From Lentisphaerota bacterium (GTDB taxonomy: Bacteria > Verrucomicrobiota > Kiritimatiellia > CAIQIC01 > Lenti-01), in NCBI GenBank assembly GCA_012514035.1, contig JAAZBB010000015.1, forward strand, positions 31,077 through 95,076: 64,000 nt of DNA, in the 5' to 3' direction. The notes beneath the pieces were generated by a model that ran no database searches, had not been told where the DNA came from, and worked only from the letters and a program-made list of their open reading frames with translations. Below, one piece after another: positions 5,330 through 55,787 of the stretch (position 1 is its first letter; each line of letters starts with the position of its first letter). The translations under genes were made by a program, and so were the position numbers.

Positions 5330-6663
5330 AGTTTCAAATCCGAAATGCCTGCTGGCTCGGCGACGACGCCTGGTTCCACCACGGCACAATTTCCATCGCG
5401 AACGGTCGCATCATGAAGCTGGAGAGCGACTTTGCCAGCGACACGCCATCCGCCGGCGAATTCATTGTGCCGGGGCTGATCGATGCCCACGTCCACCTGC
5501 GCGAGCCGGGGCAACCCTACAAGGAAGGCATCGCCAACGGGACGCTCGCCGCGCTCAAGGGCGGCGTGACCACCGTGCTCAACATGCCCAACAACGTGCC
5601 GCCGACCGCCTCCCTCGCGCGGCTCGAAGCCAAGCGCGCGCTGTTCGCCCAAAAATCGCGCGTCAACTACGGCCTGTTTTTGCAGGCCCGCATCGGCGGC
5701 CCGCGCGCGCCGGAGAGTGCCGCCGGCGTCAAGATCTACATGGCCAAATCGTCCGCCCTGGCCGCGGTCCGCGACCCCGCCGCTCTCGCCCAGATCTTCC
5801 GCCTTCAGAACCGCGTGGTCGTCCACGCCGAGGACGAGCGGGAGTTTTCCACAGGGTGGAAAAAAAGTTTCCACAGGGTGGAAAAAACGGGCGAAATTTT
5901 CCACAGTGTGGAAAAAAGTTTTCCACAGTGTGGAAAACTTCCCCATCACCTGCGCCGGCCGCGGGCGGCGGTGGTTGCGGCCTTGCAGAGCATCGCCACG
6001 GCCTGGCGGCGGGTGCCACCGAAAGAGCGGCCGCGGCTGGTCATCGCCCATTGCAGCACCGTCGAGGAAATCGACTGGGTGCGGAAGATGAAGCGGCAAG
6101 GCCACGACGTTTGGGCCGAAACCTGCCCGCACTATTTCCTGTTCACCGAACAGGATGATCGCGCGCGCGGCCCGGCATTGCAGGTGAATCCGCCGCTGCG
6201 GACCGAAGAAGACCGCGCGGCGGTTTTTGCGGCGGTGCAAGACGGCGGCATTGATTTCATCTCGACCGATCACGCGCCGCATTTGCCGAAGGAAAAGGCG
6301 GCGGACTCGCCGCCGTCGGGCATCGCGGGCCTGGAATGGTTCGGGCCGGTTTTGCTGACGCTGACCATGCGCGGGGAAATCTCGTGGCAGCGCTACCTAA
6401 AGCTGGCCGGCCAAAAGGCCGCGCAGTGCTACGGGATCGAAGGCCGCGGGCTGGTGCGCGAAGGCGCTTGGGCCGATCTGGCGATCGTGGCGAACAAGCC
6501 GCCGGCGGCGGCCCAGGAAAAAATCGTGACCCGTGCAGCGGTTCACCCCTATCCGCAGTTCGAATTCGCCGTCGGCATTCGGGCTACGCTGGTCAACGGA
6601 CGGCTGGCATGGACGGATGGGCGCGTGCGACCCGGCGTACACGGCAGGGAGGTGTATGGGTGA
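5320..6663 (+). CDS. pyrC: dihydroorotase (amidohydrolase superfamily)
   Basis: DAHVHLREPG HxH motif, VHAEDE, TCPHYF, STDHAPH. Sits in pyrimidine gene context. Carries an in-frame AT-rich tandem repeat at 5845-5938. Confidence 0.8.
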   Translation: MGMKFQIRNACWLGDDAWFHHGTISIANGRIMKLESDFASDTPSAGEFIVPGLIDAHVHLREPGQPYKEGIANGTLAALKGGVTTVLNMPNNVPPTASLARLEAKRALFAQKSRVNYGLFLQARIGGPRAPESAAGVKIYMAKSSALAAVRDPAALAQIFRLQNRVVVHAEDEREFSTGWKKSFHRVEKTGEIFHSVEKSFPQCGKLPHHLRRPRAAVVAALQSIATAWRRVPPKERPRLVIAHCSTVEEIDWVRKMKRQGHDVWAETCPHYFLFTEQDDRARGPALQVNPPLRTEEDRAAVFAAVQDGGIDFISTDHAPHLPKEKAADSPPSGIAGLEWFGPVLLTLTMRGEISWQRYLKLAGQKAAQCYGIEGRGLVREGAWADLAIVANKPPAAAQEKIVTRAAVHPYPQFEFAVGIRATLVNGRLAWTDGRVRPGVHGREVYG

Positions 6664-21138: not shown

Positions 21139-21158
21139 CATGGTGGATGGGATCGGGG

Positions 21159-21557
21159 CGCATCTCCGTTTCATTGACTTGCATTCCATTTTCCCCCTTC
21201 CTGTGGCCAGAGCCGGCCAGAGACCTCTCCAGAAACCCAACCGTCCGGGCATTGAGCCAACGCGCCCTGCCAACGACCAACAGCCGGCCCGGTCACCGCC
21301 CGGGCCTACAGCAAAACCAAGCCGCCCGCCCGCTGTCCGCAGGACCTGCATACCGGCGGTTGCTTTGGAATTTGCATAAGTAGGTTATGGTTCGGGCGGG
21401 CCCCACCACCTTGTGTGGTGGGGGAGCAAACTTTGCCTCCCATGGCGCAAGGCCATGGGGGGGCGAAACAACCAAGTTCATCACCCATATTAGCAAGGCT
21501 CAATAAAGAAACCGCCATCCCTTGCCCCACGGTCGCTGCCACTCATGTCAATGAACC
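21159..21557. repeat. mosaic interspersed repeat block (modules B', A, D')
   Basis: 21159-21363 is the reverse complement of 49312-49521. 21380-21483 is about 95% identical to 43422-43532. 21506-21557 is the reverse complement of 49244-49294. Confidence 0.85.
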
Positions 21558-21634
21558 GAAGAGGCGGCCCATGAGATCGTTGATTGATTGGTTCTGATTG
21601 AGTTCTGCGCCGGGGATTGGCATGATGCCGCCCT

Positions 21635-27292: not shown

Positions 27293-27738
27293 CCGCAGAG
27301 GACCGCAGAGGAACACAGAGAAATATCCCGTGCTTAGCAGGAAAACAGGAAACCCAGGAAAACAGGAAGGGAATGATAGCCATTTTTCTATCACGCGAAG
27401 GCATGAAACCACCGGCTGCGGACAGGGAAGGCAGGGACGCCACTGAAACCTTCTCACGCTGAAGCGGGTACTAATAACGAGTTGTGTTTGTAGTCCAGCC
27501 TTTCAGGCTGCAAATTCGGCTTTTTATCGCGAAAAACGCCCCTTTTTGATGAAAATTTCAATAAATTGCCGGATTTTTGATTATTTTGCCTAAAAAATGC
27601 CTAAAAAATGCCAAAAATATGCCAAATTTTCCTGTTTTCCTGTTTTTCCTGCTTTCTTGCTTCGGTTTTGGGCTGTTCCTCCTGTAAATTTTGAAAAATT
27701 CTGTTCCTCCTGTCTAAATTCTTAGTAATTTGACCAAA
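27293..27738. promoter_or_regulatory. AT-rich structured intergenic region with inverted (CAGGAAAA)x3 / (TTTTCCTG)x3 arrays and TGCC-A6 tandem repeats
   Basis: 27338-27369 CAGGAAAACAGGAAACCCAGGAAAACAGGAAGG and 27627-27652 TTTTCCTGTTTTCCTGTTTTTCCTGC are inverted. TGCCTAAAAAA appears twice in tandem. TTCCTCCTGTCTAAATT appears twice before the ATG at 27739. Confidence 0.5.
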
Positions 27739-31389: not shown

Positions 31390-31608
31390 TCAGTTGCTGG
31401 CGTGGGCGGCTCTCCACGCCCCGTGGATTTCATGCCGGGCGAAGATTCTTCCGGGCTGGCGGCCCAGCAGCAGGACGCGCTCGCCGTCCTTGTCGGTCCA
31501 TTCCGTGTTGTTTTGCTCGCACTTTTCGAAGGGCTTGAGCGTGGCGGGATCCGGCAGCCCTTCGACGATGGTGTCAGTCATGACATCCGGGCCCGTGTTG
31601 TAGAGCAC
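31390..31608 (-). pseudogene. duplicated 3' fragment of the GT32 glycosyltransferase gene at 34800-35582
   Basis: The 72-aa ORF is more than 90% identical to the C-terminal 70 aa of the 34800-35582 protein. The underlying 235-bp DNA (31418-31652) is about 96% identical to 34825-35059. Confidence 0.7.
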
Positions 31609-31778
31609 GCCATACTGCGACAGCGGGGCATGGGCGTTGCGCCCCAGGCGTTATAATGGGCCATCTGGCCATTTGTTCTTGGATCCTCGGCGGGCGGAAT
31701 TGAGTGTCCGCCGCGGCAGGCCAACATGCCGCTAGCTTATATTAAGAAACACCCATGGGGTGGCGGGAGGCCGCGATT

Positions 31779-33494
31779 CTATTCATATTTTAGAAACAGC
31801 GGAGTGCCCTTATCGGGTCCACCAGTGATGATGCCGCGATCCACTTGGACTTTGCAGACTTCATCAGCGAGGGTGAGCGGCTCAATCCGGGCATCGAGGA
31901 TGGAGGCATCCTGAAAGAGATGCGCGAAAATCACGGGAAATATGTCCTGCAGGATTTGGATGCCGCCGGCGGACGCTAATTGGGGATCCGGCCAACGTAT
32001 GGCCAGAAAACTGCCATAGCGGTCCTGAATGTCGAGTCTATTGATTTCACTTGCCGGGTACCCTTCCAGGTTAAAGCAGTTTTTTGTGAGATAAGGGCCG
32101 TGGTCTCCCGCCAAGATGATAATGGCATCGGGATGATGCTGGAGGATCGTTTGAACATCCACTTGCATTTCTTGGTTGGCCTTGACGACATCCATTAGAT
32201 AGAGTTGCGTTTCGTCAGGCCGGCATATCCCGGAGTTTTGGCTATGTCCAGGCAGGCGATTATGGCAGTAACAGAAGATGGGCGCTGGATATGGCCGAGA
32301 GAGCGCATCTCTTTTTTCAGCAAGGAAAGAGTCATATGGGGTGGCGTCAAAGGAAATGTCAAATCTGAATTCTCCCTCCCATATCGCCCGGCTGATGATG
32401 TGGGCCGGTTTTGATGTCACCTTGGGATAGTAATAATCGTAGGCGGGAAAGGTGCGCTGGAATACATAGCCCTGGCCGATGATAGCGGTGGTTTGGTACC
32501 CCTGTTCTTTGAAAATGGCAGGTACGGCCGAGTACCCCGCCGTGAACAGCCGGTAATTGCTGTGCGGCAATATACGCACCGGATGCAACACGCGGCTCAT
32601 GGATTTGAGAGTATCGGCGCCAACTGTGTAGGTTCCTTCGTAGATATGAAACCCGTGGCTTTCAAGGAAATCGGTCTGCGGGGAGTTGTCGAATCCATAC
32701 GCATCCAAGGTTTCACGGTTGGCGTATGATTCGTAGATCAGCAAGAAAACATCTGGGCGGTGCAACATGTGTTTGCCGGCAAGAAATGAAAGAAGGGGGG
32801 CCGGCGGGACTTCCGCGGTTGCCGCCCGGTCGGAGCCGTCGCGTGCGCCGGTCTTCCATCCCGCGATTAGGCTGACGGAAAACATGCCAACGACCATGGC
32901 GTAGCATGTTTTTCTGCTGGCCGCGTAGACGCCGGTCAAGGCTGCGATGGTGACAAGCAGAATGGGGCCTTGAACCTTGAAGATTCCTGCTTGATACCAT
33001 CCGAATGCCGAGGAGTACGAGCCCATGTTGAACATGGTGTGGGCGAGTCCCACGCTCGTCAGCATGATGATGTGATTGGGCCATCGCGGAAATGCCAGAG
33101 AAAGCAGCCCCGGACAGGCGATGCAGCAAGCCCCAATAATTGCGGAAAAAAACAGGAAAACGAGAGCCGAATCCATGATTGATAGCATATCTTGATTTGC
33201 CAAAATATACTGAACAATCGGCGTGAGAGGCAGGAGGAGGAGAAGGAGGTCGCCCCAAATGGTTTGTTCGGCTTGGCAGCGGGGTTGAGGTGCGCCCTTA
33301 GGACGGTGAATCCTGCGGACGGTTTGAATAAGCCCTACCCCGATCAGGCCCGCGGCAACGGGCAACAACGCCTTGGACACAAATACCCTGTTGACACCTG
33401 AAGGCAGGAGAAACATGCCAATCGCCATCCAGGCCCCAAGCGTGCACAGCATCGCGAGCCCGCTTATAATCAATTTGTTGTAAGACGGAACCAT
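31779..33494 (-). CDS. membrane-anchored sulfatase-like protein (alkaline-phosphatase superfamily; LTA-synthase/phospho-transferase-like)
   Basis: Five N-terminal transmembrane helices, then a sulfatase-type domain (LLIYESYAN...LAGDHGP). Noticeably lower GC than the surroundings. Confidence 0.58.
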   Translation of the reverse strand: MVPSYNKLIISGLAMLCTLGAWMAIGMFLLPSGVNRVFVSKALLPVAAGLIGVGLIQTVRRIHRPKGAPQPRCQAEQTIWGDLLLLLLPLTPIVQYILANQDMLSIMDSALVFLFFSAIIGACCIACPGLLSLAFPRWPNHIIMLTSVGLAHTMFNMGSYSSAFGWYQAGIFKVQGPILLVTIAALTGVYAASRKTCYAMVVGMFSVSLIAGWKTGARDGSDRAATAEVPPAPLLSFLAGKHMLHRPDVFLLIYESYANRETLDAYGFDNSPQTDFLESHGFHIYEGTYTVGADTLKSMSRVLHPVRILPHSNYRLFTAGYSAVPAIFKEQGYQTTAIIGQGYVFQRTFPAYDYYYPKVTSKPAHIISRAIWEGEFRFDISFDATPYDSFLAEKRDALSRPYPAPIFCYCHNRLPGHSQNSGICRPDETQLYLMDVVKANQEMQVDVQTILQHHPDAIIILAGDHGPYLTKNCFNLEGYPASEINRLDIQDRYGSFLAIRWPDPQLASAGGIQILQDIFPVIFAHLFQDASILDARIEPLTLADEVCKVQVDRGIITGGPDKGTPLFLKYE

Positions 33495-33759
33495 GTCCTG
33501 GCCGGTGATGGTTGTGAAGCTGCGCCCCCGTTTTGCATCAAAGAATGCCCGAACCTGATCCTCGATGGAGAGATCTTGGATCCTGGTGATCTTTTAGAAC
33601 AATCGGTAGATCAATTGGCATTCGAACGCTATGTTTCTTCTGACAAATCAATATGTCATATCCCGATGGCAAGTCAAGCGGGCGGCGACAGTCAAGCGGG
33701 CGGCCGGGCGGCGAGAATGGGTCCTGTCCAGCTCGTCGGAGCCGGTCTGGGCGGGCACC

Positions 33760-34522
33760 CGCCCGGCGCCGCACCTCTTCAAAGAACCGCCCCTTGACGG
33801 GCACCCACGTCTACGTGTGGCTGGACGCGATCTGGCTGAAGCGCAGCTGGGCCGGCGAGGTCCGCAATGTGTCGGTGCTGGTGGCCATCGGCGTGGGGGA
33901 CGAAGGCTACCGGGAAGTGCTGGGCGTGCAGGAAGGGATGAAGGAGGACAAGGAGAGCTGGTCGGACTTCCTGAAGAACCTGCGGGGCCGCGGCCTGAAG
34001 GGCACGGAACTGTTCGTCACGGACAAGTGCCAGGGCCTGGTGGAGTCCGTCGGGGAGATCTTTCCCGAAGCCCGCTGGCAGCCATGCGTGGTGCATTGGT
34101 ACCGCAACGTGCTGCGGACCGTCCCCAAGACGAAGTGGCGGGAGGTGGCGGCCATGCTCAAGGCCATCCACGCCCAGGAAGACCGCCGCGCGGCGCTGCG
34201 CAAGGCGCACGACGTGCACAAGAAGCTGTTGGCCATGAAGCTGGCGAAGGCGGCGCAGATCATGCGCGAAGGCGTCGAGGAGGCCTTGGCCTACATGTCG
34301 TTCCCCCGGGAACACTGGCTCAAGATCCGCACGACCAATCCGCTGGAACGGATCAACCGGGAGATCCGGCGCCGGACCCGCGTGGTGGGCGCCTTCCCCG
34401 ACGGAAACGCGGCCGTTCTGCTGGTGGTAGTCCGATTGCGACATATTGCCGGCACCCGCTGGGGCACGAAAATGTACATGGACGTGAAACGCCTGGAAAA
34501 CCGGAAGGAGACCGCCGCCTGA
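33760..34522 (+). mobile_element. IS256-family transposase, N-terminally truncated remnant
   Basis: NRPLTGTHVYVWLDAIWLKRSWAGEVRNVSVLVAIGV...DGYREVLG matches the DDE region of the IS256/mutator family from the first Asp onward. The roughly 150 N-terminal residues are missing and no intact inverted repeats were seen. Confidence 0.8.
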
Positions 34523-34799
34523 CCTGGCGAAAATTTCCTCGGGGGGATTCCCCCCGGGAAGGAAGAAGAGAGCAAGCCATGCCTCAACCGAGAACCTGTC
34601 TCAAACCAAAGTGCGAAATATTCTGGACACTACCCTTGGTAACAATGAGGGCGCGGTAACTTATTTGAAGCCAAAACAGCTTCCTCGAATGCTTAATGCG
34701 TGACGCAAGACCCAGAAGGCCAACTTGTGCAAGTAAACGTTTCCCCAGCTGATATAATGTCATGAGATATCTCGAGTGATCGGTCTGCAAATTGGAATG

Positions 34800-35582
34800 C
34801 TATTTTGCATGCGCCTCGCGCCATGCCCCGTGGATTTCATGCCGGGCGAAGGTTTTGCCGGGCTGGCGGCCCAGCAGCAGGACGCGCTCGCCGTCCTTGT
34901 CGATCCATTCCGTATTGTTGTGCTCGCACTTTTCGAAGGGCTTGAGCGTGGCGGGATCCGGCAGCCCTTCGACGATGGTGTCAGTCATGACATCCGGCCC
35001 CGTGTTGTAGAGCACGCCATACTGCGACAGCGGGGCATGGGCGTTGCGCCCCAGGCGTTCCTGAATCCGGTTCAGGCACCGGGCCAGAATGGGCGAGTGG
35101 GGACGGCGGCTCCAGAAGACATAGTTGGCGATCCGCACGTTGTATTCCGGAACCTCCCCGCGAAACTCCCGGGTCATGGCCATGTTTTTCTGGACGGCCT
35201 CGTCGCTGTTTACGAATTCCGTCCAAGCCACGAAATCGGGTCCAGTTGGCACGGGCTTGCGTCCCCATTCAATATCGTGGTCGGAATAGATGCCCGCGCG
35301 GTCGTAGATCAGCAGCAAACGCAGGATGTCGGATCGCATCACCGGCGACGTGTAGGGTGCCCAGAAAAGTTCATAAATTCCCGGGAATTGGTCTTGATGC
35401 CGGGCCAAAAGGGCCCGGGTCTCGGCTTGACTGGACCACAGGATGACTTTTGCGCCCCGCGGCTTCCGTTTGTCCAGCGATCGCAAGTACCCGGTCGGAA
35501 TCGGATTGCCGTCGTTTTCCAGCCAGATCTTGTAAACTAGAACGACTGACTGAGGGGCAAAAGGCCAGCGGAAGAATTTCAT
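34800..35582 (-). CDS. glycosyltransferase family 32-like (DXD sugar-binding region)
   Basis: LLLIYDRAGIYSDHDIEW resembles the Gly_transf_sug DxD region. Start set at MKFFRWPF (ATG 35582). Confidence 0.58.
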   Translation of the reverse strand: MKFFRWPFAPQSVVLVYKIWLENDGNPIPTGYLRSLDKRKPRGAKVILWSSQAETRALLARHQDQFPGIYELFWAPYTSPVMRSDILRLLLIYDRAGIYSDHDIEWGRKPVPTGPDFVAWTEFVNSDEAVQKNMAMTREFRGEVPEYNVRIANYVFWSRRPHSPILARCLNRIQERLGRNAHAPLSQYGVLYNTGPDVMTDTIVEGLPDPATLKPFEKCEHNNTEWIDKDGERVLLLGRQPGKTFARHEIHGAWREAHAK

Positions 35583-35854
35583 GATGGAATCCGTTCGAAG
35601 AACTGGTGTTGGGTTGTCTGCCGCTCTGGCGCGAATTCGCATGTCCAATCGGCGCGAGCCGGTTCATCTCTTGAAGCCAAGCAGATCGTCGGGCAAACCA
35701 CAAGACAGATGTCCAGGGCATGGAAATCCTCATGGCGCGCTCCCCAGGTTCCGCCGTCTTCATCAGCGGGACACAGAAGGGCGCCAAACGGAAAGAACCG
35801 GAGTCCGGTCCCCCGGCCGCTTCCATTGAACAAAGCATGTGTTGACCACCGGCC

Positions 35855-42068: not shown

Positions 42069-42228
42069 GGGCGTTATTCCACAGGCGGAACGCAGCACTT
42101 TAGCGGCGTTCAAGCGAACAAATGACCCATAAGTATGGCGGCAAGGATGCGTTTTAGGCAAACGTATTTTGGCGGTTTAGATCTGGCGATCGGGCGCAGC
42201 CCGGTTCCATTGACAACGATTGGCCAAA

Positions 42229-42440
42229 TTTGGAGTGCGGCGGGAAGCGAGGCTCGGCGATCGCCACGCCGCTTTTTGTTTTTGGGGAGGCAGCCGAACG
42301 GTCAGCCATAACAGCCGGAACAGCCAAAGCGGGGCCGCCTCCCGTTGGTCGTTGTCCCCGCACTCCAAACCGATCCGCGCAATTTGGAGTGCGGCGGGAA
42401 GCGAGGCTCGGCGATCGCCACGCCGTTTTGGGGGGTGCCC
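42229..42440. repeat. interspersed repeat module C (one full and one partial tandem copy)
   Basis: 42229-42369 is about 90% identical to 49522-49664, with TTTGGAGTGCGG...CCGCACTCCAAA terminal inverted ends. A second partial copy sits at 42381-42425. Confidence 0.85.
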
Positions 42441-43421: not shown

Positions 43422-43532
43422 GTAGGTTGCGGTTATGGTTCGGGCGGGCCCCGCCACCTTGTGTGGTGGGGGAGCTAACTTTGCCTCCCATGGCGCAAGG
43501 CCATGGGGGGGGCGAAACAGCCAAGTTCATCA
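43422..43532. repeat. interspersed repeat module A (solo copy), two GC-rich hairpins
   Basis: About 95% identical to 21380-21483. The hairpins are CCCC(A/G)CCACC-ttgtg-TGGTGGGGG and CCCATGGC-gcaag-GCCATGGG. Confidence 0.85.
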
Positions 43533-49008: not shown

Positions 49009-49084
49009 GTTCTGCAGGTTGTCCCGACTATAGGGGAGGCTGCGTCATGCTGTAAAGAAGCTCCGCCCGCCCGGCGCGGCAGAA

Positions 49085-49160
49085 TGGAGCCAAAGGTCGG
49101 ATTCGAACCGACGACCGTCGCATTACGAATGCGGTGCTCTGCCAGCTGAGCTACTTTGGC
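49085..49160 (-). tRNA. tRNA-Thr (anticodon CGU)
   Basis: Reverse complement folds as a cloverleaf: acceptor GCCAAAG/CTTTGGC, D-arm GCTC-AGCTGGCA-GAGC, anticodon loop TTCGTAA (CGT), T-arm GTCGG-TTCGAAT-CCGAC, encoded CCA. Closely resembles canonical tRNA-Thr(CGU). Confidence 0.9.
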
Positions 49161-49216
49161 GCCAACGGAGGCGGACTATGCCAAACAGGTCGCGGGCAAG
49201 TCAAGGGTCTGCATGG

Positions 49217-49735
49217 TGCGCGGTTGTTTCCGGGCGTCTCTCCGGTTCATGGACATGAGTGGCAGGGACCGTGGGGCAAGGGATGGCGGTTTCTTCAGGA
49301 TTTTGACGGCGCGAAAACCAACCGCCGGCATGCAGGTCCTGCGGACAGCGGGCGGGCGGCTTGGTTTTGCTGTAGGCCCGGGCGGTGACCGGGCGGGCTG
49401 TTGGTCGTTTGGCAGGGTGCGTTGGCCAAATGCCCGGACAGTTGGATTTCTGGAGAGGTTTCTGGCCGGCTCTGGCCACAGGAAGGGGGGGGATGCAAGT
49501 CAATGAAACGGAGATGCGCCCTTTGGAGTGCGGCGGGAAGCGAGGCTTGGCGAGCGCCACACCGCTTTTTCTGGGTGCAGCCGAACCGGCGGCGGAACAG
49601 CCAACAGCCGGAACAGCCAAAGCGGGGCCGCCTCCCGTTGGTCGTTGTCCCCGCACTCCAAAAAGGCCGGCCGATGGGAGTCAGATATTTCATGTCCGGT
49701 CGGTCAATGACACAGAGATGCGCGGTTGTTTCCGG
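49217..49735. repeat. composite repeat element (modules D-B-C) bounded by 17-bp direct repeats TGCGCGGTTGTTTCCGG
   Basis: Direct repeats at 49217-49233 and 49719-49735. D at 49244-49294, B at 49312-49521 and C at 49522-49664 match the copies at 21159-21557 and 42229-42369. Confidence 0.85.
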
Positions 49736-49788
49736 CCGTAATCCGAAAATGGCCAATTTGACGGCACAAAGCCGGCTTGCGCCGGATC

Positions 49789-52700
49789 TCATAACTCGAT
49801 GGCGTCGCCGGTGCGGACAAAAAGCAGCGTGCAGACGATCTGGCCTGGGGGCAGGCCAAAGAGCCGGGCGACGGCCTGGCGGTAATCATCCATCTGCAGG
49901 CGGTGGCGTCCGGGATCCGGCGTGCGGTCGGTCTTGAAATCCAGAACCCGCGCACGGACCGGCAGGCCCGCGGCGTCGCGCTCCAGATGCAGGCGATCGA
50001 TTTTGCCCGAAAGCCACCGGCCGTCCAGAACGGCTTCGAAAGCTTGCTCGCGCAGCAGTTCGACTGCGCCGCCGGGATGTTCCAAAACGGCGTGGGCGTC
50101 GGGATGCTGCAGGAATTCGGTCACCAGCCCCGCCGCGAGAGGGTCGCGGGTCTCAAGCTTGGGCAGTTCTCCGGCCGCCAGCCATTCGATCTGTTCGAAC
50201 AGGGCATGAACCCGGGTGCCGAGATCGCGGGCTTCGGCACCTTCGGGGCGGAAATACCGGCCATCCAGGCCTTCGCCTCCGGCGTGGTCCTCCGAGGCAA
50301 TATGCGATTCCATGGGCCGTTCGAAGGGCGCCCGCGGCAGGGTTTCGAACCGGAGCGGGGCGCATGGCGCGTCGGCGGGCTTTTCGTCGCCCGTCTTGCG
50401 CCGCCACCATTCGCGCTCACCGGCTTCCCAGGCGGGGATTTCCGGATCGGCCTCCGCCCCCGGAGCCAAGGTGTTCTGCAGCACATTGTCCAGGCGCAGG
50501 GTGCTGCTTTTTTCGGCGGGGGCGGTCGTGATCAGGTAAAGTGCGCGCTTGGCGCGGGTCATGGCGACATAGAGCAGGCGCAGCTCCTCCAGCGCGTTAT
50601 GGCGGCGGTCCTCGGCATATTGTGCGGCCAGGACCGGATCGGCCTCGAGCGCCTTGGTCTCGGGGGAGGACAGGATCCAGTCCACGGGCGGAAGGGGTTC
50701 GTCGCCGGCCCTCTCGTGCACCAGCAGCGGCTCCTTGCTGTGCGCGGTGATGCCGTTGCTTCCCAGGGCCGGCAGGATGACGATGTCATATTCCAGCCCC
50801 TTGGCCTTGTGCATGGTCAGGATGTGGATGTTGGACCCGCTTTGCTCGGCGGGAATTTCCTGCGCCTGCACGTGGGAGCAGAAGAGCAGGGCGTTGCCGC
50901 CCGGCATCCGGTCGAAATCGGCCGCAATGGAGATCAGCAGGCGCAGGCGGTTTTGCTCCAGCGGAGCCTGGCTCAGGTCCAGCCGGGCGGCCAGGCGGGT
51001 GACGAATCCGGCATAGCCTTGTTCGCGGATCAGCCGCGCCCATGCAGTCAGTTCGACGGGTTCGAGCGAAACGACGGGCGCCAGCGCCGACATCAATACA
51101 TGCTGTCGGGCGAACTCATCGCCGGGATGCTCGCTGAGCCTGGCCAAAGAAAGCACCGCCGGGATCAGGGTGTTGTCGAGCAGTTCGGAATTGCCGGCCC
51201 AGACGGCGTGGATGCCCTTGGCGGCCAGCGCCCCGAGCATGTTCCGCCCGTCGGGGTTGCTGCGGGTCAGGATGGCCACCGAATGCCGGTCGAAATCCGG
51301 AATCTCCCCGCGGAGTTGTTCCACCAGCCTGGCCGCGCGCTGGATGGCCGGCGGATAGGATGCTTCTGCTTCTTCGGGTTCTTCCTGCCCGGGCCGGGGC
51401 AGCACATGCAGGGCAACGTGGCCGGACAGGTCCTTGTTTGGATCGGCCGCCCGGTGCGCCGTCCATTCCGGCTGCCAGCGGCCGGCGATCTCGATCCAAT
51501 CGCCATGAAGCTGTTCGTTACGGGGCAGCGGCATGCCGGCCAGCGCATTGAAAACGCGGTTCACGGCCTCGAGCACCACCGGGCTGGAGCGCCATGAGGC
51601 GACGAGCGGCTCGGATACGTCAATGGCCGGTGCGGCACCGGGCCGGTTGTATTTCGCCAGGATGCGCCGGAACAGGCGCGGATCGCCCCCGCGCCATTCA
51701 TAGATGGCCTGTTTCACGTCCCCCACATAGAAAAACGTGCGCCCGCCCTCCGCATCCTGGATGACCTCGTCCACCAGGTTCTCGATGACGGACCACTGCA
51801 CCAGCGAGGTGTCCTGGAATTCGTCGAGCAACCAATGCCGGAAGCGGGCGTCGAGGCGGTAATCCATTCGCGCCCGGAGGTCGGCCACCGCCGCGCCCGC
51901 CGCGGGGCTGAGCAGGTGGGCGATGTCGCTGAACGCCACCTGTCCGCTGCCGCGGATATGTTCGCTGCGGCTCCGCCCATAGGCGGACAGCAACTGGAAC
52001 AGACCGCGCGTCCGGGCGATCTGCCGCCCGAGGATGGCGTGGCGGATATGCGCGAACACCCCGGCCAACGTGTGTCGCGTTTCCGCCGACAACTTGACCT
52101 CGGACTTGCGGATCTGGATGGAAGCGCCGGTTTCCCCCGGCGCGGCGAAGGCTTGGTACAGGCGGTTGGCCAGGGTGTTTCCAAAATCAAAGTCGCCGGT
52201 TTGCCGGCAGGCCCGTAGAACGCCGATGAACCGCCGCCAATCATTCTGGGCCTGGCCGGGGGGGATGGACTCCGCCTGGTCTTCCAGGGTGGAAAAGACT
52301 GTCGGCCAATCGGGCTGCGCGGGGGCGGGCAGGCCGCCCGGCCAAATCCGGGAGGCATCGCCCCACAGTTCCGACCGGGGCGCGCGGCGATAGAGTTCAT
52401 ACTGGTTCCCGATCAGGTCTTGCAGGGCTCCATAGACGCTTTTCTTCTCTTCCCCGAAGGTGGCCCGCTGGAAGGCCTCCATCAGCTCGCGGCGGTGCGG
52501 CTCCGTCGCGGCCACCTGTCCCAGCAGCCGTTGCAGGACGAGATCCTCCTCGGCGGCTTGCACGTCCGGCGCAATGCCCGGCTCCGCCGCAATCCCGTAT
52601 TCCAGGCGGAACTGGCGCAGAATCTGCAAAAAGAACGAATCCAGCGTGCCGATCCGCAGGCCCGGCAGCGCATGCACCAGGGCGTGCAAGGCGGCCTGTG

Positions 52701-52977
52701 CGGCGGCGTGGCTGGCGAATTCCGGCAGACCGCCGTCGGCCAGGTGGCGGTTCAAATCCGCGAATTCCTTTGCGCTGGCGGCTGCCTGCGCCAGCCGCGT
52801 CAGGATGCGCGCCAGGATTTCGCCCGCCGCCTTGCGCGTGAAGGTCAGCGCGACGATGGAGGCCGGGTCCGCCCCGCCGGCCAGCAGGGCCAGGTAGCGG
52901 CTGCTCAGCGCAAAGGTTTTCCCGGTGCCGGCGGATGCCGCCATCGCCGCGCTGCGGATGGAACAAGCGGTGTTCAT
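49789..52977 (-). CDS. addA: ATP-dependent helicase/nuclease subunit A (UvrD-like helicase plus C-terminal PD-(D/E)XK nuclease)
   Basis: N-terminal AGTGKTFAL Walker A of the UvrD/Rep family. C-terminal LDFKTD nuclease motif. 1062 aa. Overlaps the addB stop by 4 nt. Confidence 0.85.
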   Translation of the reverse strand: MNTACSIRSAAMAASAGTGKTFALSSRYLALLAGGADPASIVALTFTRKAAGEILARILTRLAQAAASAKEFADLNRHLADGGLPEFASHAAAQAALHALVHALPGLRIGTLDSFFLQILRQFRLEYGIAAEPGIAPDVQAAEEDLVLQRLLGQVAATEPHRRELMEAFQRATFGEEKKSVYGALQDLIGNQYELYRRAPRSELWGDASRIWPGGLPAPAQPDWPTVFSTLEDQAESIPPGQAQNDWRRFIGVLRACRQTGDFDFGNTLANRLYQAFAAPGETGASIQIRKSEVKLSAETRHTLAGVFAHIRHAILGRQIARTRGLFQLLSAYGRSRSEHIRGSGQVAFSDIAHLLSPAAGAAVADLRARMDYRLDARFRHWLLDEFQDTSLVQWSVIENLVDEVIQDAEGGRTFFYVGDVKQAIYEWRGGDPRLFRRILAKYNRPGAAPAIDVSEPLVASWRSSPVVLEAVNRVFNALAGMPLPRNEQLHGDWIEIAGRWQPEWTAHRAADPNKDLSGHVALHVLPRPGQEEPEEAEASYPPAIQRAARLVEQLRGEIPDFDRHSVAILTRSNPDGRNMLGALAAKGIHAVWAGNSELLDNTLIPAVLSLARLSEHPGDEFARQHVLMSALAPVVSLEPVELTAWARLIREQGYAGFVTRLAARLDLSQAPLEQNRLRLLISIAADFDRMPGGNALLFCSHVQAQEIPAEQSGSNIHILTMHKAKGLEYDIVILPALGSNGITAHSKEPLLVHERAGDEPLPPVDWILSSPETKALEADPVLAAQYAEDRRHNALEELRLLYVAMTRAKRALYLITTAPAEKSSTLRLDNVLQNTLAPGAEADPEIPAWEAGEREWWRRKTGDEKPADAPCAPLRFETLPRAPFERPMESHIASEDHAGGEGLDGRYFRPEGAEARDLGTRVHALFEQIEWLAAGELPKLETRDPLAAGLVTEFLQHPDAHAVLEHPGGAVELLREQAFEAVLDGRWLSGKIDRLHLERDAAGLPVRARVLDFKTDRTPDPGRHRLQMDDYRQAVARLFGLPPGQIVCTLLFVRTGDAIEL

Positions 52978-55787
52978 CGTTGGCCCGGCTCCCGGATCAG
53001 CGGCCGCCCCCCGGAAAACAGCGGCCCGAAATCGTCAAACCGGATGCTTCGATCCGTCGGCGGCCAGAACGTTCCGGCCTGGATGCGGGCAATGACTTCG
53101 CGGGCCTTGGCCAGGGCTGCGGGGTAGAGGTCTTCCCCGCCCTTGGAGCGCAGGTCCCACTCGAGGATTCCGGTCCGCCCGGTGGCCTGGGGCAGATTGA
53201 AATAGCCCACGGTGATGTCCGCGGCCGGAACATGCAACTGTTCGTAGATGAAGCGATAGAGCGGCAACTGCAGATCGGCCCAGCGCTCTTCCGAATTCGG
53301 CCGGAAGTGCGTTTTGAGGGGCGCATCCCCGCTGTCGGACGTCTTGTAGTCGAGGATGCGGATGCGCCCGGTTTCCAGATGCCGGTCAATCCGGTCTATG
53401 CGCGCCCGCAGAAGCATGCCGTCGAGTTCAGCCTCATGGTTCTCCTCGGCGGAGATGATTCGCCACCCCTCCCGAACCGCGGCCGCGTGGATGCGCGCAG
53501 CCGCGATCAGCCGCCGCCGCAGGGATTCCAGCTGGACGATCGCCGCAACCGGCGGCTGCGGCCCGAATCGCCGCCCCGCCAATTCGTCGAGTTCATGCAG
53601 CAGCCGGGCGCTGAGTTCTTCTTCATCGGCCAGCGCGGGGTGCTGCTTGAGGATGCGCAGGACCTCGTGCGCCAGGGTCCCGAAATCCATGATGCTGATT
53701 TCCCGGGCGCGGTCGTCTTCGGCCTGCATGCCGAACACCTCGGCCAGATAGAAGCGGAACGGACAGGTGAGATAGGTCTTGAACGCCGTCACGGACAACC
53801 GGCGTGGAATCCGCTCCGGCGGACAGGCCGGTGGCGTCAGTGGGAGTACCGGCCGCGCCGGAACCGCGGCGGCCGTCCCGCGCCATCCGGGCCGCCCGAA
53901 AATCAGGTTCACACGCCCGGGCAGAGCGGAATCCGGGCACGCCAGCAGGAGGCGGGAAGGCAATTGCGGGTCCTGGTTTGCGGCCCGCCGGCTGTACAGG
54001 AAACGCACCCCCCCGGCCGGGCGCGATTCCAGCAACGTGCGGGCCAGATACAGGTCCCGGGCATGCAACTCGCGGTTCCCGGCCATGCCCGCCTTGGCGC
54101 GGATGGAATCCGGCAGGAAGGCATCGCCCATCCGGGTTTCCGGAATGACGCCTTCACGCATGTCCGCCAGCAGGACTGCCGGCGACGTTTCCCATTGCAC
54201 TTCCAGCCAGCCGATGGTCTCCCGTGTGGCGGACCGGTTGGGCTTGGGAAACACCGTTTCGTTGCCCATCGCCGCCAGCAGCAGATCAATGGCATCTTCC
54301 CTGGTCAGTTTCAGGAGGCGGGCAGTCTCTGCGGTTGTCCCGATCAAGTCGGCCAGGCGGGCGGCCGCCTCGGCAAACAGCGGATCGGGAGGGAAATCCG
54401 CCGCCGGCCGGCGCGCATCATGGACATCGGCCAGGAAACGCGGCAGGGCATCCCCGAAATGTTTGCTCAATTCGTCCAGGGCACTGGCCAGCACCCGCCC
54501 ATCCGGGTCCTGCTGCGCAAACCGGCGCAGGTCATCGAAGGTCATCGGCAGGTGTCGGGCCTGGCATTGATCCAGTTGGGACAGCAACTCCACCGCGTCC
54601 TGCAGCCCCAGCCGGCCGCAGAGCCAGGCCTGGGCGTCGGGATGCCGGAGAAAAGCGGCGGTGGCGGCATAATCCCGCCGTCGCAGCAGCGACAGCCAGT
54701 CGGCCAACAGCCGGCCCGGCGCGGTAGCGGCCAGCGGCACCCCGTTGGGCAGGTACAGCGCGACATTCTCCGCCTGCAGGCGGCGGGCGAGGGCCTGGGC
54801 GTTTCCGGGATCAGGTGTGCAGACCGTCAGCGCCTGCTTCTTCCGGTGCGCTTCCAGCACCATGGCTGCCAGCGTTTCCGTTTCGTCGGGAGCCTGTTCA
54901 AAGACATGAATCTGGTGTTCCGGCAAGGGCAGGGGCTGGTTTTCCCAGTGCGCGGGGAGGGGTCGCCCCCAATCGTCGAACCGGTTCCCCTCCGCGGCCG
55001 GCGCCAGGATATGCAGCTCAATCTCACATGGCGCGGCCAGCGTTTGGATCCGGTGCACGGCCAGGGCCGGCAAATCCGGAACGAACAGAACCAACACCCG
55101 CTGAAAAGGCGCCGGCGGCGATGCCTGCCCCGCCGCTTCGCGGCGGGCCTGGAACGGATCCCGCAATCCCTGCCGCGCGATATCCTGCAACAAGCCCTGT
55201 TCCAGTGCGGCGATCTCGCTCCAGCGTTCCCGTTCCTCGTCCGGCACCAGCGCGATCATGTCGGCGGCCGCACGATCCGCCTGGGTCAACTGCCGCCGGA
55301 CCTCCTGGAGCTGCGCGGCGATTCCGAGGGCAAAGGCAAAGTCCCATGGCGTGCCATGGGTGGGCAGCAACGCCGGAAGTTGGTTGTGCTGGTTGAGCAG
55401 CCGCCGCGCCAGCAGCGCCAGCACCAGGGTTTCGTCCGCCACTCCATCCGGCAGCGAACCCATATGCTCCGGCGTCACAATGGAACCACCCAGGACAGCC
55501 GTCCCTCTCGCCGCAGCCGTTCGGGCCAGTTCCGCGCGTAACCGCCGCCCTGCGTGGCGCGTCGGCACCACGATCAGGCAACTCCGCAGATCCAGCGGCC
55601 CCGGCCCCGGCCAGTCCCGCGACAGCACCTCCACCGCCGCTCGCAGGACCGGGGTTTTCCAGTCGTGGAAATGCCGGGAAATGCTCACCCCCGAACCCTG
55701 ACGGAAAGAACCGTAAAAATCAATTTCAACCCGGCATGCGCCGGCGGCCATGCCCGGCCATTGCCATCCCGGGTTTTCCAGGCTCAT
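52974..55787 (-). CDS. addB: helicase/nuclease subunit B-like PD-(D/E)XK nuclease family protein
   Basis: 937 aa. N-terminal degenerate ATPase region (LIVVPTRHAGRRL). C-terminal RecB-type nuclease region (YLTCPFRFY). Co-operonic with addA. Confidence 0.68.
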   Translation of the reverse strand: MSLENPGWQWPGMAAGACRVEIDFYGSFRQGSGVSISRHFHDWKTPVLRAAVEVLSRDWPGPGPLDLRSCLIVVPTRHAGRRLRAELARTAAARGTAVLGGSIVTPEHMGSLPDGVADETLVLALLARRLLNQHNQLPALLPTHGTPWDFAFALGIAAQLQEVRRQLTQADRAAADMIALVPDEERERWSEIAALEQGLLQDIARQGLRDPFQARREAAGQASPPAPFQRVLVLFVPDLPALAVHRIQTLAAPCEIELHILAPAAEGNRFDDWGRPLPAHWENQPLPLPEHQIHVFEQAPDETETLAAMVLEAHRKKQALTVCTPDPGNAQALARRLQAENVALYLPNGVPLAATAPGRLLADWLSLLRRRDYAATAAFLRHPDAQAWLCGRLGLQDAVELLSQLDQCQARHLPMTFDDLRRFAQQDPDGRVLASALDELSKHFGDALPRFLADVHDARRPAADFPPDPLFAEAAARLADLIGTTAETARLLKLTREDAIDLLLAAMGNETVFPKPNRSATRETIGWLEVQWETSPAVLLADMREGVIPETRMGDAFLPDSIRAKAGMAGNRELHARDLYLARTLLESRPAGGVRFLYSRRAANQDPQLPSRLLLACPDSALPGRVNLIFGRPGWRGTAAAVPARPVLPLTPPACPPERIPRRLSVTAFKTYLTCPFRFYLAEVFGMQAEDDRAREISIMDFGTLAHEVLRILKQHPALADEEELSARLLHELDELAGRRFGPQPPVAAIVQLESLRRRLIAAARIHAAAVREGWRIISAEENHEAELDGMLLRARIDRIDRHLETGRIRILDYKTSDSGDAPLKTHFRPNSEERWADLQLPLYRFIYEQLHVPAADITVGYFNLPQATGRTGILEWDLRSKGGEDLYPAALAKAREVIARIQAGTFWPPTDRSIRFDDFGPLFSGGRPLIREPGQR

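Follow-up and report, generated by a model that had tools for sequence, protein, structure and literature searches.

A probable composite MITE between addA and the tRNA-Thr(CGU) gene of a Lentisphaerota bacterium

Results and discussion

Analysis of a 64-kb stretch of DNA from a Lentisphaerota bacterium (hereafter the window) led us to conclude that the repeat block at positions 49232-49724 probably consists of a pair of MITEs (non-autonomous DNA transposons) that belong to one family and are arranged head to tail. The first part would be a complete 290-bp D-B element composed of a left terminal inverted repeat (TIR), the modules D and B and a right TIR, and the second part would be the right-hand portion of an X-type element with the hairpin module C, a linker and a right TIR of its own. 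The whole composite measures 493 bp and carries no gene. The family is defined by a terminus of about 23 nt, GGGCGCATCTCCGGTTCATTGAC, has 8-9-bp target-site duplications at its flanks and carries no gene. The insertion occupies the only dispensable DNA at this locus, between the 3' end of addA and the promoter of tRNA-Thr, both of which are left intact.

Location of the block

The tRNA-Thr(CGU) gene at 49085-49160, already recognised in the first-pass annotation, was confirmed by ARAGORN and by Rfam (66.6 bits); it lies on the minus strand and includes an encoded CCA. A consensus scan revealed a promoter-like site on the same strand (49175-49204), comprising a -35 box TTGACT (49204..49199), an N18 spacer with a TG and a -10 box CATAGT (49180..49175), with a predicted start near 49168. 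The same TTGACT-N18-CATAGT arrangement is kept upstream of tRNA-Thr(CGU) in the relative L002. On the other side of the block lie addA (49789-52977; UvrD helicase and PD-(D/E)XK nuclease domains by Pfam, homologues named Kiritimatiellia) and addB (52974-55787), both on the minus strand, with the 3' end of addA pointing toward the composite. As tRNA-Thr and addBA are all encoded on the minus strand, the block is situated 5' of the tRNA gene, just past its predicted promoter, and 3' of the addA stop codon. It had originally been described as lying on the 3' side of the tRNA gene, abutting it, and as occupying the addBA promoter region. These three statements proved to be incorrect: the block is on the upstream side, a 56-nt spacer carrying the promoter-like site separates it from the tRNA gene, and it follows the addA stop.

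Between the composite and the addA stop, the sequence retains 53 nt of native spacer (49736-49788, minus strand) with a weak hairpin, CCGGC-GCAA-GCCGG, and a subsequent CTTTGTG, the fold of which is not distinctive (z = -1.5). The left flank GTCAAGGGTCTGCATGGTGCGCG was also considered as a relic right end and rejected, since its GTCAA corresponds to the tRNA -35 box that is kept in L002 and the remainder could not be aligned.

Architecture of the composite and copies of its modules in the window

The block opens with the left TIR GGGCGTCTCTCCGGTTCATGGAC (49232-49254, plus strand), a terminus also found in four other PVC MAGs, followed by the rest of module D (49255-49295, plus strand). Comparison of 49232-49295 with the inverted segment 21506-21569, part of a second copy at 21 kb, revealed 92% identity. 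A unique 19-nt spacer (49296-49314, plus strand) then separates D from B, at the position where the aligned 21-kb copy has module A of about 150 nt. Module B (49315-49498, plus strand) shares 87-97% identity with 21179-21366, and over its first two-thirds it matches the metagenome contigs L007/L008 at 93% identity. The D-B element ends with the inner right TIR (49499-49521, minus strand; GTCAATGAAACGGAGATGCGCCC on the plus strand).

Module C (49522-49662, plus strand) is a long hairpin (-70.5 kcal/mol, z = -2.6) with inverted ends of its own, TTTGGAGTGCGG...CCGCACTCCAAA; the z-scores of the long hairpins predicted for D-B and C range from -2.6 to -3.5. Parts of the linker of the X-type element (49663-49702, plus strand) recur in L007, L045 and L024, its start AAGGCCGGCCGATGGGAG being joined to C also in L007 and its end TCCGGTCG preceding the right TIR in L045 and L024. 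The block closes with the outer right TIR (49703-49724, minus strand; GTCAATGACACAGAGATGCGCG on the plus strand), homologous to the TIR at L024:4901-4923. The echo of the end of module B after module C, as noticed in the first pass, is indeed present.

The 23-nt TIR consensus is thus represented by three copies in the block and by two at the 21-kb copy (21156/21570). Mismatches to the consensus number two at 49232-49254, one at 49499-49521 and five at 49703-49724, the last being a degenerate copy with its final two bases off-consensus. The TIR at 49232 faces inward and the two right TIRs face the opposite way. Inner and outer right termini differ at 4/22 positions, compared with 92-97% identity among the other repeats.

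The repetitive nature of modules D, B and C was confirmed, with D and B (49232-49521) recurring inverted at 21156-21570 and C (49522-49662) at 42229-42369. The former is a second D-B element (minus strand) in which alignment shows module A nested between D and B, and it is flanked by a 9-bp duplication, ATGGGATCG (21147-21155) and ATGAGATCG (21571-21579), matching at 8/9 positions. The latter belongs to the left part of an X-type element (42190-42430, plus strand), of which L045 has the complete form, with a TIR-like GGGCGCAGCCCGGTTCCATTGAC, a 14-nt linker, C, 13 nt and a half copy of C (42383-42430). A free-standing module A with two GC hairpins (43431-43532, plus strand) is also present, giving two copies of D-B, 2.5 of C and two of A in the window.

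The 17-bp direct repeat

The direct repeat TGCGCGGTTGTTTCCGG was recovered as an exact match at both reported sites, 49217-49233 and 49719-49735. The concern that it might be a common genomic word was not borne out for the window, which contains these two occurrences only and no third match with up to two mismatches (0.03 expected by chance). It is absent from all other family loci examined, and such restriction to one locus is as expected of target DNA. The left copy is composed of TGCGCG in the flank (49217-49222), GTTGTTTCC as the duplication (49223-49231) and the GG that starts the TIR (49232-49233), and the right copy of the TGCGCG that ends the outer TIR (49719-49724), GTTGTTTCC again (49725-49733) and a GG in the flank. 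Since the 8-9-bp duplications of the family flank the outermost ends, the 17-mer is probably made up of a 9-bp target-site duplication, GTTGTTTCC, and of 8 further nt resembling the ends of the element itself.

In this reading, the left TIR and the outermost of the right TIRs would have been recognised by a DDE-type transposase whose gene lies elsewhere. The enzyme would have cut GTTGTTTCC with a 9-bp stagger, some 55-63 nt ahead of the predicted start of tRNA-Thr, and the insertion would then have generated the GTTGTTTCC duplication that forms the core of the 17-mer, and the original empty-site junction would read ...GGTCTGCATGGTGCGCGGTTGTTTCCGGCCGTAATCCG... The order in which the two elements were fused is not reconstructable from a single composite copy.

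Based on window k-mer frequencies, the chance of obtaining the extra TGCGCG and GG is about 9e-5 per element, and the direct repeat of 17 bp is therefore not fully accounted for by a 9-bp duplication. In other copies, too, the repeat overlaps the G/C-rich ends by 1-3 nt (12 nt in L016b, 10-12 nt in L013, 10 nt in L027), so some extension is to be expected. An allele of the empty site would be informative in this respect. If the 17-mer were element-borne and not target-derived, such an allele should read ...CATGG-CCGTAATCC..., without any 17-mer. If TGCGCG was already in the target, it should read ...CATGGTGCGCGGTTGTTTCCGGCCGTAATCC..., which would favour chance or end-like targeting, and an allele without TGCGCG would speak for a 17-bp event or for subsequent conversion.

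Conservation among strains

The block is present in each of 13 strain-level contigs (99.5-99.98% identity), within an intergenic region of the same 780-nt length. The 14 sequences contain three SNPs in the block, all in module B, at a density similar to that of the surrounding 23 kb. No empty site was found among these 13 contigs, and in the next AddA relatives (73-76% identity) synteny is lost, with different genes following addA. Identical structure without polymorphism in related strains, which had been named as a refuting outcome, was thus observed in 13/13 contigs; all that follows from it is fixation of the insertion in this population. The composite is fixed in the species, and the presence/absence polymorphism that characterises MITEs was not seen at this site. 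Among public contigs of the species, several break off within module C and one is chimeric across module B.

The family in other genomes

When 185,579 species genomes were scanned for the TIR pattern, 15 loci were returned, nine of them in PVC MAGs and about six being chance matches in coding DNA (about four expected). The nine PVC loci comprise six contigs of 'Lentisphaerae' VGWF01, two uncultured Verrucomicrobiota and Kiritimatiellia AnMBR.bin255, and at least 12 TIR-bounded units were counted across these four other PVC MAGs. Duplications were found at the 74-nt minimal element L016 (ACATGATTC, 9/9), at L027 (CCCCGGTCG, 9/9), at L013 (8/9) and at the 49-kb block (9/9). Flank pairs matched at 8/9 positions or better in 5/13 true pairs, compared with 0/156 mismatched pairs; under strict settings a clean duplication was seen for only 5/13 elements.

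In the relatives, as at the 21-kb copy, the duplications surround the outermost ends. L013, L018, L020, L023 and L027 each consist of a left TIR, a core, a right end, a module of about 165 nt and again a right end, with flanks that differ from site to site. Accordingly, reiterated right ends (R) are a family trait that recurs at independent sites: the VGWF01 arrays follow the order left TIR-core-R-M-R(-M-R), the present block the order D-B-R-C-R', and the duplication is always located around the outermost ends. This pattern raises the rather improbable option that the family grows by end bypass, in which the transposase would skip the proximal right end and use a distal one, thereby capturing and subsequently co-mobilising neighbouring modules. 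End bypass would provide PVC bacteria with a built-in route to modular MITE evolution, and in that case the 17-bp repeat would be the result of preferential insertion beside end-like sequences.

The X-type element (C, linker and right TIR) is a separate element type, of which L045 (343 nt) and L024 (197 nt) contain complete examples, where TIR and linker show 78-79% identity to 49663-49724. L007/L008 combine a TIR, C, a partial linker and a truncated B, indicating that modules are reshuffled. A search of metagenome contigs with a 21-mer from the B core yielded this one further locus (two contigs, L007 and L008) and one chance match, and a 165-aa spurious ORF over the composite retrieved its own locus, the low-coverage chimeric contig L044 and the X-type element in L045-47. 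The family elements are intergenic and occur in co-directional, divergent and other contexts; apart from the 49-kb block, none was found near a tRNA gene.

Other searches gave no relatives. A distant BLAST of the whole intergenic region against the plasmid collection returned no match, and neither did the composite when its six-frame translation was used as a chimeric query on 5.8 billion proteins. An exact 20-mer of the B core had zero matches in the genome contig collection, from which the species representative itself was not retrieved either. In viral contigs the TIR and the C core had zero matches and the 17-mer had three, which is chance level. At the Rfam 15 gathering threshold the window gave tRNA only and ten related loci gave nothing. 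No TIR pair at insertion-sequence distance, the arrangement of an autonomous element, was present in about 240 kb of loci examined, and no transposase, integrase or recombinase family was detected by Pfam among about 55 ORFs of the 64-kb window. We found no papers on MITEs in Kiritimatiellia or on the TIR string.

Prokaryotic MITEs measure about 50-800 bp, and their target duplications normally span 2-10 bp (PMC11602168). The elements described here are small and carry no gene (290 and 493 bp, relatives 74-415 bp, with spurious ORF calls only), their 23-nt TIRs exceed the usual minimum of 10-15 bp, and a target-site duplication of the usual length is present, although the repeat at the 49-kb block extends to 17 bp. 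Copies are dispersed at unrelated sites in the window, in L007/L008, in L045-47 and in the four PVC MAGs.

Alternative explanations

A footprint of nested MITE insertion had been suggested in the first-pass annotation, and in kind this was upheld by the 23-nt TIRs and 8-9-bp duplications. The specific step of C entering the B terminus is not the best fit, as the second terminus and its linker are homologous to an X-type right end. According to that scenario, which we consider unlikely, D-B would have inserted first, leaving the 17-mer as its footprint, and C would subsequently have entered the right terminus of B with duplication of about 22 nt. Right termini do occur on either side of C, C has inverted ends of its own and is present elsewhere, and nesting is known in the family from module A inside the 21-kb copy. 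However, a 22-nt duplication is ill-suited to a family with 8-9-bp duplications, the two termini are more divergent (4/22 positions) than the other repeats, C has no flanking duplication at any of its three sites, and the homologous terminus and linker in L024 and L045 both go with C. Alternatively, the 17 bp could be a genuine duplication created by another mechanism, such as short-homology insertion of a circular or linear intermediate or targeting beside a 'surrogate end'. The exactness of the repeat across all 17 bp, the low chance of eight extra bases, a length beyond the 2-10 bp norm of MITEs (PMC11602168) and the fact that the outer TIR ends unusually in ...GCGCG, exactly as the left flank does, would be in line with such an event. 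Against it, the central 9 bp are placed relative to GGGCG.../...GCGCC exactly as the duplications of the family are, overruns into the ends also occur in L016b, L013 and L027, and other copies have no consistent end-like motif left of the duplication, which leaves this possibility with little likelihood in our assessment.

It had further been proposed that the 17-bp repeats are att-like, that is, attL and attR of a small island integrated at tRNA-Thr. Apart from the presence of direct repeats near a tRNA gene, the data do not bear this out, and we regard it as highly improbable. The two copies are located 57 and 559 nt upstream of the tRNA 5' end, past the promoter, and have no sequence in common with the tRNA. 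The suggested search for an integrase found none among the approximately 55 ORFs scanned in the window, and the cargo amounts to 485 bp of dispersed repeats that do not code for protein and have inverted repeats at their boundaries. Furthermore, the same family duplicates unrelated sequence at other sites, where no member lies near a tRNA. A different type of explanation holds that the modules are kept as RNA or DNA signals, either as genes for small RNAs or because they terminate transcription or insulate addA from the tRNA promoter, their spread being secondary. The long hairpins of D-B and C would fit this idea, as would the near invariance of the block and the first half of C, where on the plus strand a GC hairpin precedes TTTTT and which in L007 lies in sense just after a gene; terminator-like MITEs such as SPRITE are known (PMC10969869). 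At the 49-kb locus, however, addA and tRNA-Thr are not encoded on the strand that bears the T-run hairpin of C, and a terminator scan was not above shuffled expectation, and a terminator role of C at this site was therefore rejected. Copies in co-directional, divergent and other intergenic contexts, the lack of an Rfam match and a SNP density like that of the surrounding 23 kb likewise argue against retained signals, so that we judge this origin to be quite unlikely. Inward-facing TTGACA/TTGACT motifs in the TIRs were also considered as promoters and discarded, as the scan gave no matching -10 box. The composite is most likely a neutral passenger, and a terminator or insulator effect of its hairpins is only putative.

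Relation to known repeats and implications

Comparison with described systems places the composite closest to bacterial MITEs such as Correia/NEMIS of Neisseria, ERIC and the QMITEs of Coxiella, with which the family shares non-coding units of 74-493 bp, 23-nt TIRs, short duplications, a multi-copy intergenic distribution and the capacity to form hairpins as single strands. Unlike known MITEs, its TIR and modules match nothing in Rfam, the plasmid and viral collections or the literature searched, and many copies carry a reiterated right end with extra modules and transpose in that form. Pneumococcal BOX, RUP and SPRITE are modular small repeats that cluster in intergenic DNA and insert into each other (PMC10969869). 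Here, too, modules cluster and nest, with A inside D-B and C beside D-B. In contrast to the pneumococcal repeats, all modules here have one terminus family and 8-9-bp duplications; BOX is not known to have a TIR and target-duplication structure of such kind. BIMEs/REP mosaics of enterobacteria and RIMEs of rhizobia are similar in being mosaics of few short palindromic intergenic modules whose order varies by locus. REP/BIME units are imperfect palindromes of 20-40 nt that are associated with RAYT (Y1) transposases and are not known to produce target duplications, whereas the present units span 74-490 bp and have 23-nt TIRs and 9-bp duplications. With tRNA-associated islands the block shares direct repeats near a tRNA gene. 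Such islands lie 3' of the tRNA, with a repeat within the tRNA gene, an integrase and kilobases of cargo, and the block has none of these; neither a repeat containing the 3' part of the tRNA nor an adjacent tyrosine or serine recombinase was found. The insertion sequence families IS256, ISL3, the IS5/IS903 group, IS1, IS1595 and IS6 have 8-9-bp duplications and ends beginning with GG according to the ISfinder family table. Our family would resemble them in duplication length and GG-starting ends, and as no transposase gene or full-length element was found, we made no assignment to an IS family.

Overall, the block represents selfish DNA of an ordinary sort, belonging to a MITE family that we did not find described in the literature searched. 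A false lead has thereby been removed: there is no integrase-type island at tRNA-Thr and nothing in the addBA promoter. The family helps to explain assembly breaks such as the contig ends in module C and the chimera across module B, and its modular composites, with their reiterated ends, may be of modest interest to studies of MITE diversification. More generally, a MITE family is now documented for Kiritimatiellia and related PVC bacteria, which are known almost solely from metagenomes and whose mobile DNA is essentially uncharted, and its 23-nt terminus offers a practical probe for the parent transposon.

Modular structure of the repeat block

Repeat finding bore out the repeat modules proposed in the first-pass annotation: D and B (49232-49521) have an inverted second copy at 21156-21570, in which an additional module A of ~150 nt separates D from B, while module C (49522-49662) recurs at 42229-42369 and as a half copy at 42383-42430. 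A 23-nt terminus with the consensus GGGCGCATCTCCGGTTCATTGAC is present three times in the block: once reading inward, at 49232-49254, and twice oppositely oriented, at 49499-49521 and 49703-49724. As the 21-kb copy bears one such terminus at each end, D-B represents a complete element with terminal inverted repeats (TIRs). In predicted folds, single-stranded D-B and C form long hairpins via their inverted ends (z = -2.6 to -3.5), and Rfam matched nothing in the window besides the tRNA. Module A, nested in the 21-kb D-B element at 21383-21483 and free-standing at 43431-43532, consists of two GC-rich hairpins (CCCCACCAC...GTGGTGGGG and CCCATGGC...GCCATGGG), with a weak relative on another contig (L024:1736-1825).

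Other repeats were also observed in the window. A 253-nt direct repeat (94% identical; 31400-31652 and 34807-35059) surrounds ~3.2 kb within a polysaccharide-synthesis cluster, comprising two ORFs of lower GC3 and without Pfam match (31779-33494, minus strand; 33631-34659, plus strand). A glycosyltransferase ORF (34800-35648, minus strand) has the second repeat copy as its 3' end, and the arrangement may reflect an insertion accompanied by partial duplication of a gene. Four copies of the palindrome TTTCCACAG(G/T)GTGGAAAA, arranged as two inverted pairs at 5840-5942 inside a called amidohydrolase ORF (5320-6663), suggest either an operator array or an erroneous ORF call. Finally, the short dispersed repeat AGCAGGAAAACAGGAAACCCAGGAAAACAGGAA at 27336-27368 has an inverted partner 260 nt away (27629-27661), and an identical 34-mer of it occurs in an unrelated contig (L008:3767-3800).

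Family members and target-site duplications

The B core was not found in the species-representative genome collection, and JGI metagenomes contained it at only one other locus (L007/L008), with the reshuffled module order TIR, 14 nt, C, partial linker and truncated B. Scanning for the TIR pattern returned 15 loci, nine of them in MAGs of the PVC group: six contigs of 'Lentisphaerae bacterium K_DeepCast_100m_m2_028' (VGWF01), two of uncultured Verrucomicrobiota and one of Kiritimatiellia AnMBR.bin255. The remaining six were in-frame chance matches in unrelated phyla (~4 expected). One VGWF01 locus, L016, holds a minimal 74-nt unit (GGGCGCATCTCCGGTTCATTGAC...CCGGCGATGCGCCC) with a perfect flanking 9-bp duplication (ACATGATTC). 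The five others (L013, L018, L020, L023 and L027) show a left TIR, core, right end, a module of ~165 nt (present twice, in tandem, in L020) and a second right end; their flanks are unrelated from site to site, and it is the outermost ends that the duplication flanks (9/9 in L027, 8/9 in L013). This ~165-nt module begins with CTCCGGCCATCAC, resembling the left TIR minus its first 8 nt, so that the VGWF01 composites may have arisen as head-to-tail dimers that lost bases at the junction.

Flanks matching at 8/9 positions or better at the predicted position were found for 5 of 13 elements versus 0 of 156 mismatched flank pairs, and shifting the end by one base added three further elements with matching flanks. 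The 21-kb copy is flanked by ATGGGATCG/ATGAGATCG, and the block by GTTGTTTCC/GTTGTTTCC, exactly bordering the left TIR on one side and the outer right TIR on the other. Together, TIRs and duplications are characteristic of a DDE transposon, cut-and-paste or copy-paste, that cuts its target with a 9-bp stagger, and the family falls within the usual definition of MITEs (no transposase, a length of 50-800 bp, target-site duplications of 2-10 bp and TIRs no shorter than 10-15 bp; PMC11602168). As a side observation, a family member in uncultured Verrucomicrobiota CAYODK01 (L022:1073-1210) lies ~50 nt past the stop codon of a gene; the C-terminus encoded there (...TMIYTHVLNRGPQGVLSPADSL) resembles a tyrosine recombinase, a single case in 1.5 kb of sequence.

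Origin of the composite

The linker and outer TIR of the block (49663-49724) share 78-79% identity with the TIR and linker of a complete element of 197 nt at L024, which encloses a C-like hairpin. A complete 343-nt element is contained in L045-L047, loci reached by protein search with a 165-aa ORF, spurious but annotated across the block by some pipelines; this element consists of a left TIR, AACGATCGGCCAAA, C, 13 nt and a second C-like hairpin, followed by a linker with the end ...TCCGGTCG and the right TIR. Judged by these structures, 42190-42430 is the left part and 49522-49724 the right part of an element of this build ('X-type'), and the block is thus a D-B element directly followed by an X-type element without left TIR and 14-nt linker. 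An in-situ fusion, by a second insertion into the same target and a subsequent 46-nt deletion, is possible; since movement as a unit is demonstrable for the VGWF01 composites that contain an internal right end, we regard insertion of the whole unit, from left TIR to outer right TIR, at GTTGTTTCC as the likeliest history.

The 17-bp direct repeats (TGCGCGGTTGTTTCCGG) described in the first-pass annotation are indeed exact at 49217 and 49719, with no further occurrence in the window at up to two mismatches (0.03 expected). Nine of their bases are the duplication; of the other eight, six (TGCGCG) precede it and two (GG) follow. In the right copy, TGCGCG forms the last bases of the outer TIR, and in the left copy GG is the start of the left TIR. 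Based on window k-mer frequencies, the chance of this extension is ~9e-5 per element. In several other family copies the repeats extend 1-3 nt into the G/C-rich ends, so the extension is in part compositional; candidate explanations for the bases beyond 9 bp are chance, insertion beside an end-like sequence, or short-patch conversion. The 17-mer is not a common genomic word, which the first-pass annotation had named as a refutation of its reading: it is absent from all other family loci, and in viral contigs its occurrence does not exceed chance level.

Gene setting and tRNA promoter

Pfam scans of ~55 ORFs identified the window as a housekeeping region encoding purine and pyrimidine synthesis, ArgRS, pyruvate kinase, MurJ, polysaccharide synthesis, AddAB and EF-P. 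As tRNA-Thr(CGU) (49085-49160; ARAGORN and Rfam in agreement), the AddA ORF (49789-52977; UvrD helicase and PD-(D/E)XK domains) and the AddB-like ORF (52974-55787; PD-(D/E)XK domain) are all encoded on the minus strand, the 628-nt intergenic stretch 49161-49788 follows the addA stop and precedes the tRNA in the direction of transcription. The proposed location of the block, 3' of the tRNA and in the addBA promoter region, was therefore reversed. An ARAGORN call of tRNA-SeC(UCA) at 55065-55143 (minus strand) is probably a false positive, because it lies within the AddB-like ORF and no Rfam tRNA or tRNA-Sec model reached threshold there.

A consensus scan placed a promoter-like site, TTGACT-N18(TG)-CATAGT (49204..49175, minus strand), ~8 nt upstream of the mature tRNA 5' end region. 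In L002, a relative with 76% AddA identity, tRNA-Thr(CGU) is likewise located downstream of addA in the same orientation, separated from it by three other genes, and carries an identical TTGACT-N18-CATAGT within 45 nt upstream. Homology between both loci ends immediately past the -35 box; the repeat block starts 12 nt further (17-mer at 49217) and the element proper at 49232, ~-64 relative to the predicted tRNA start. We take the predicted tRNA-Thr promoter to be intact and native. A second promoter-like site, TTTACA-N18-TATAGT (10/12; 49027-49056, minus strand), was noted in the interval from the tRNA 3' end to a GDSL/TPR gene (start at 49008), and a GC hairpin with UUCUUU directly follows tRNA-Thr.

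The suggestion of an att-like duplication left by an integrase at tRNA-Thr was not borne out: the repeated 17-mer lies 5' of the tRNA, the wrong side for an att site, and has no sequence in common with it, the Pfam scans revealed no recombinase or transposase in the window, and at none of 10 other loci was a tRNA found within 8 kb of the family member.

Fixation and functional implications

The AddA cluster includes strain-level variants from NCBI, ENA, JGI and Logan; 16 contigs from independent samples share 99.5-99.98% identity with the window. All 13 contigs spanning the region share an intergenic length of 780 nt and differ by three SNPs only, all within module B, with 17-mers and TIRs invariant; this species is thus fixed for the insertion. 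Such an identical structure among strains had been named in the first-pass annotation as speaking against its reading. Four public short-read contigs (L029, L030, L032 and L033) end at 49645, inside C, and the low-coverage contig L044 is a chimera joining the B copy at 49 kb to the 21-kb copy. The repeats thus cause assembly artefacts, as is typical of dispersed repeats.

Clusters of small, mutually inserting repeats have been described for pneumococcal BOX, RUP and SPRITE (PMC10969869), and the block is of the same well-known kind. As far as checked, the family itself is new in its TIR, modules, PVC hosts and reiterated right ends; the literature searched contained no paper combining Kiritimatiell* with MITE and none containing the TIR string.

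The block touches neither the tRNA promoter nor the 3' end of addA, its T-run hairpin lies on the strand opposite to addA and the tRNA, a terminator scan gave no signal over shuffled expectation, and family copies are found in all kinds of intergenic contexts. From this we conclude that the block is most likely a neutral, fixed passenger, with regulatory side effects being possible.
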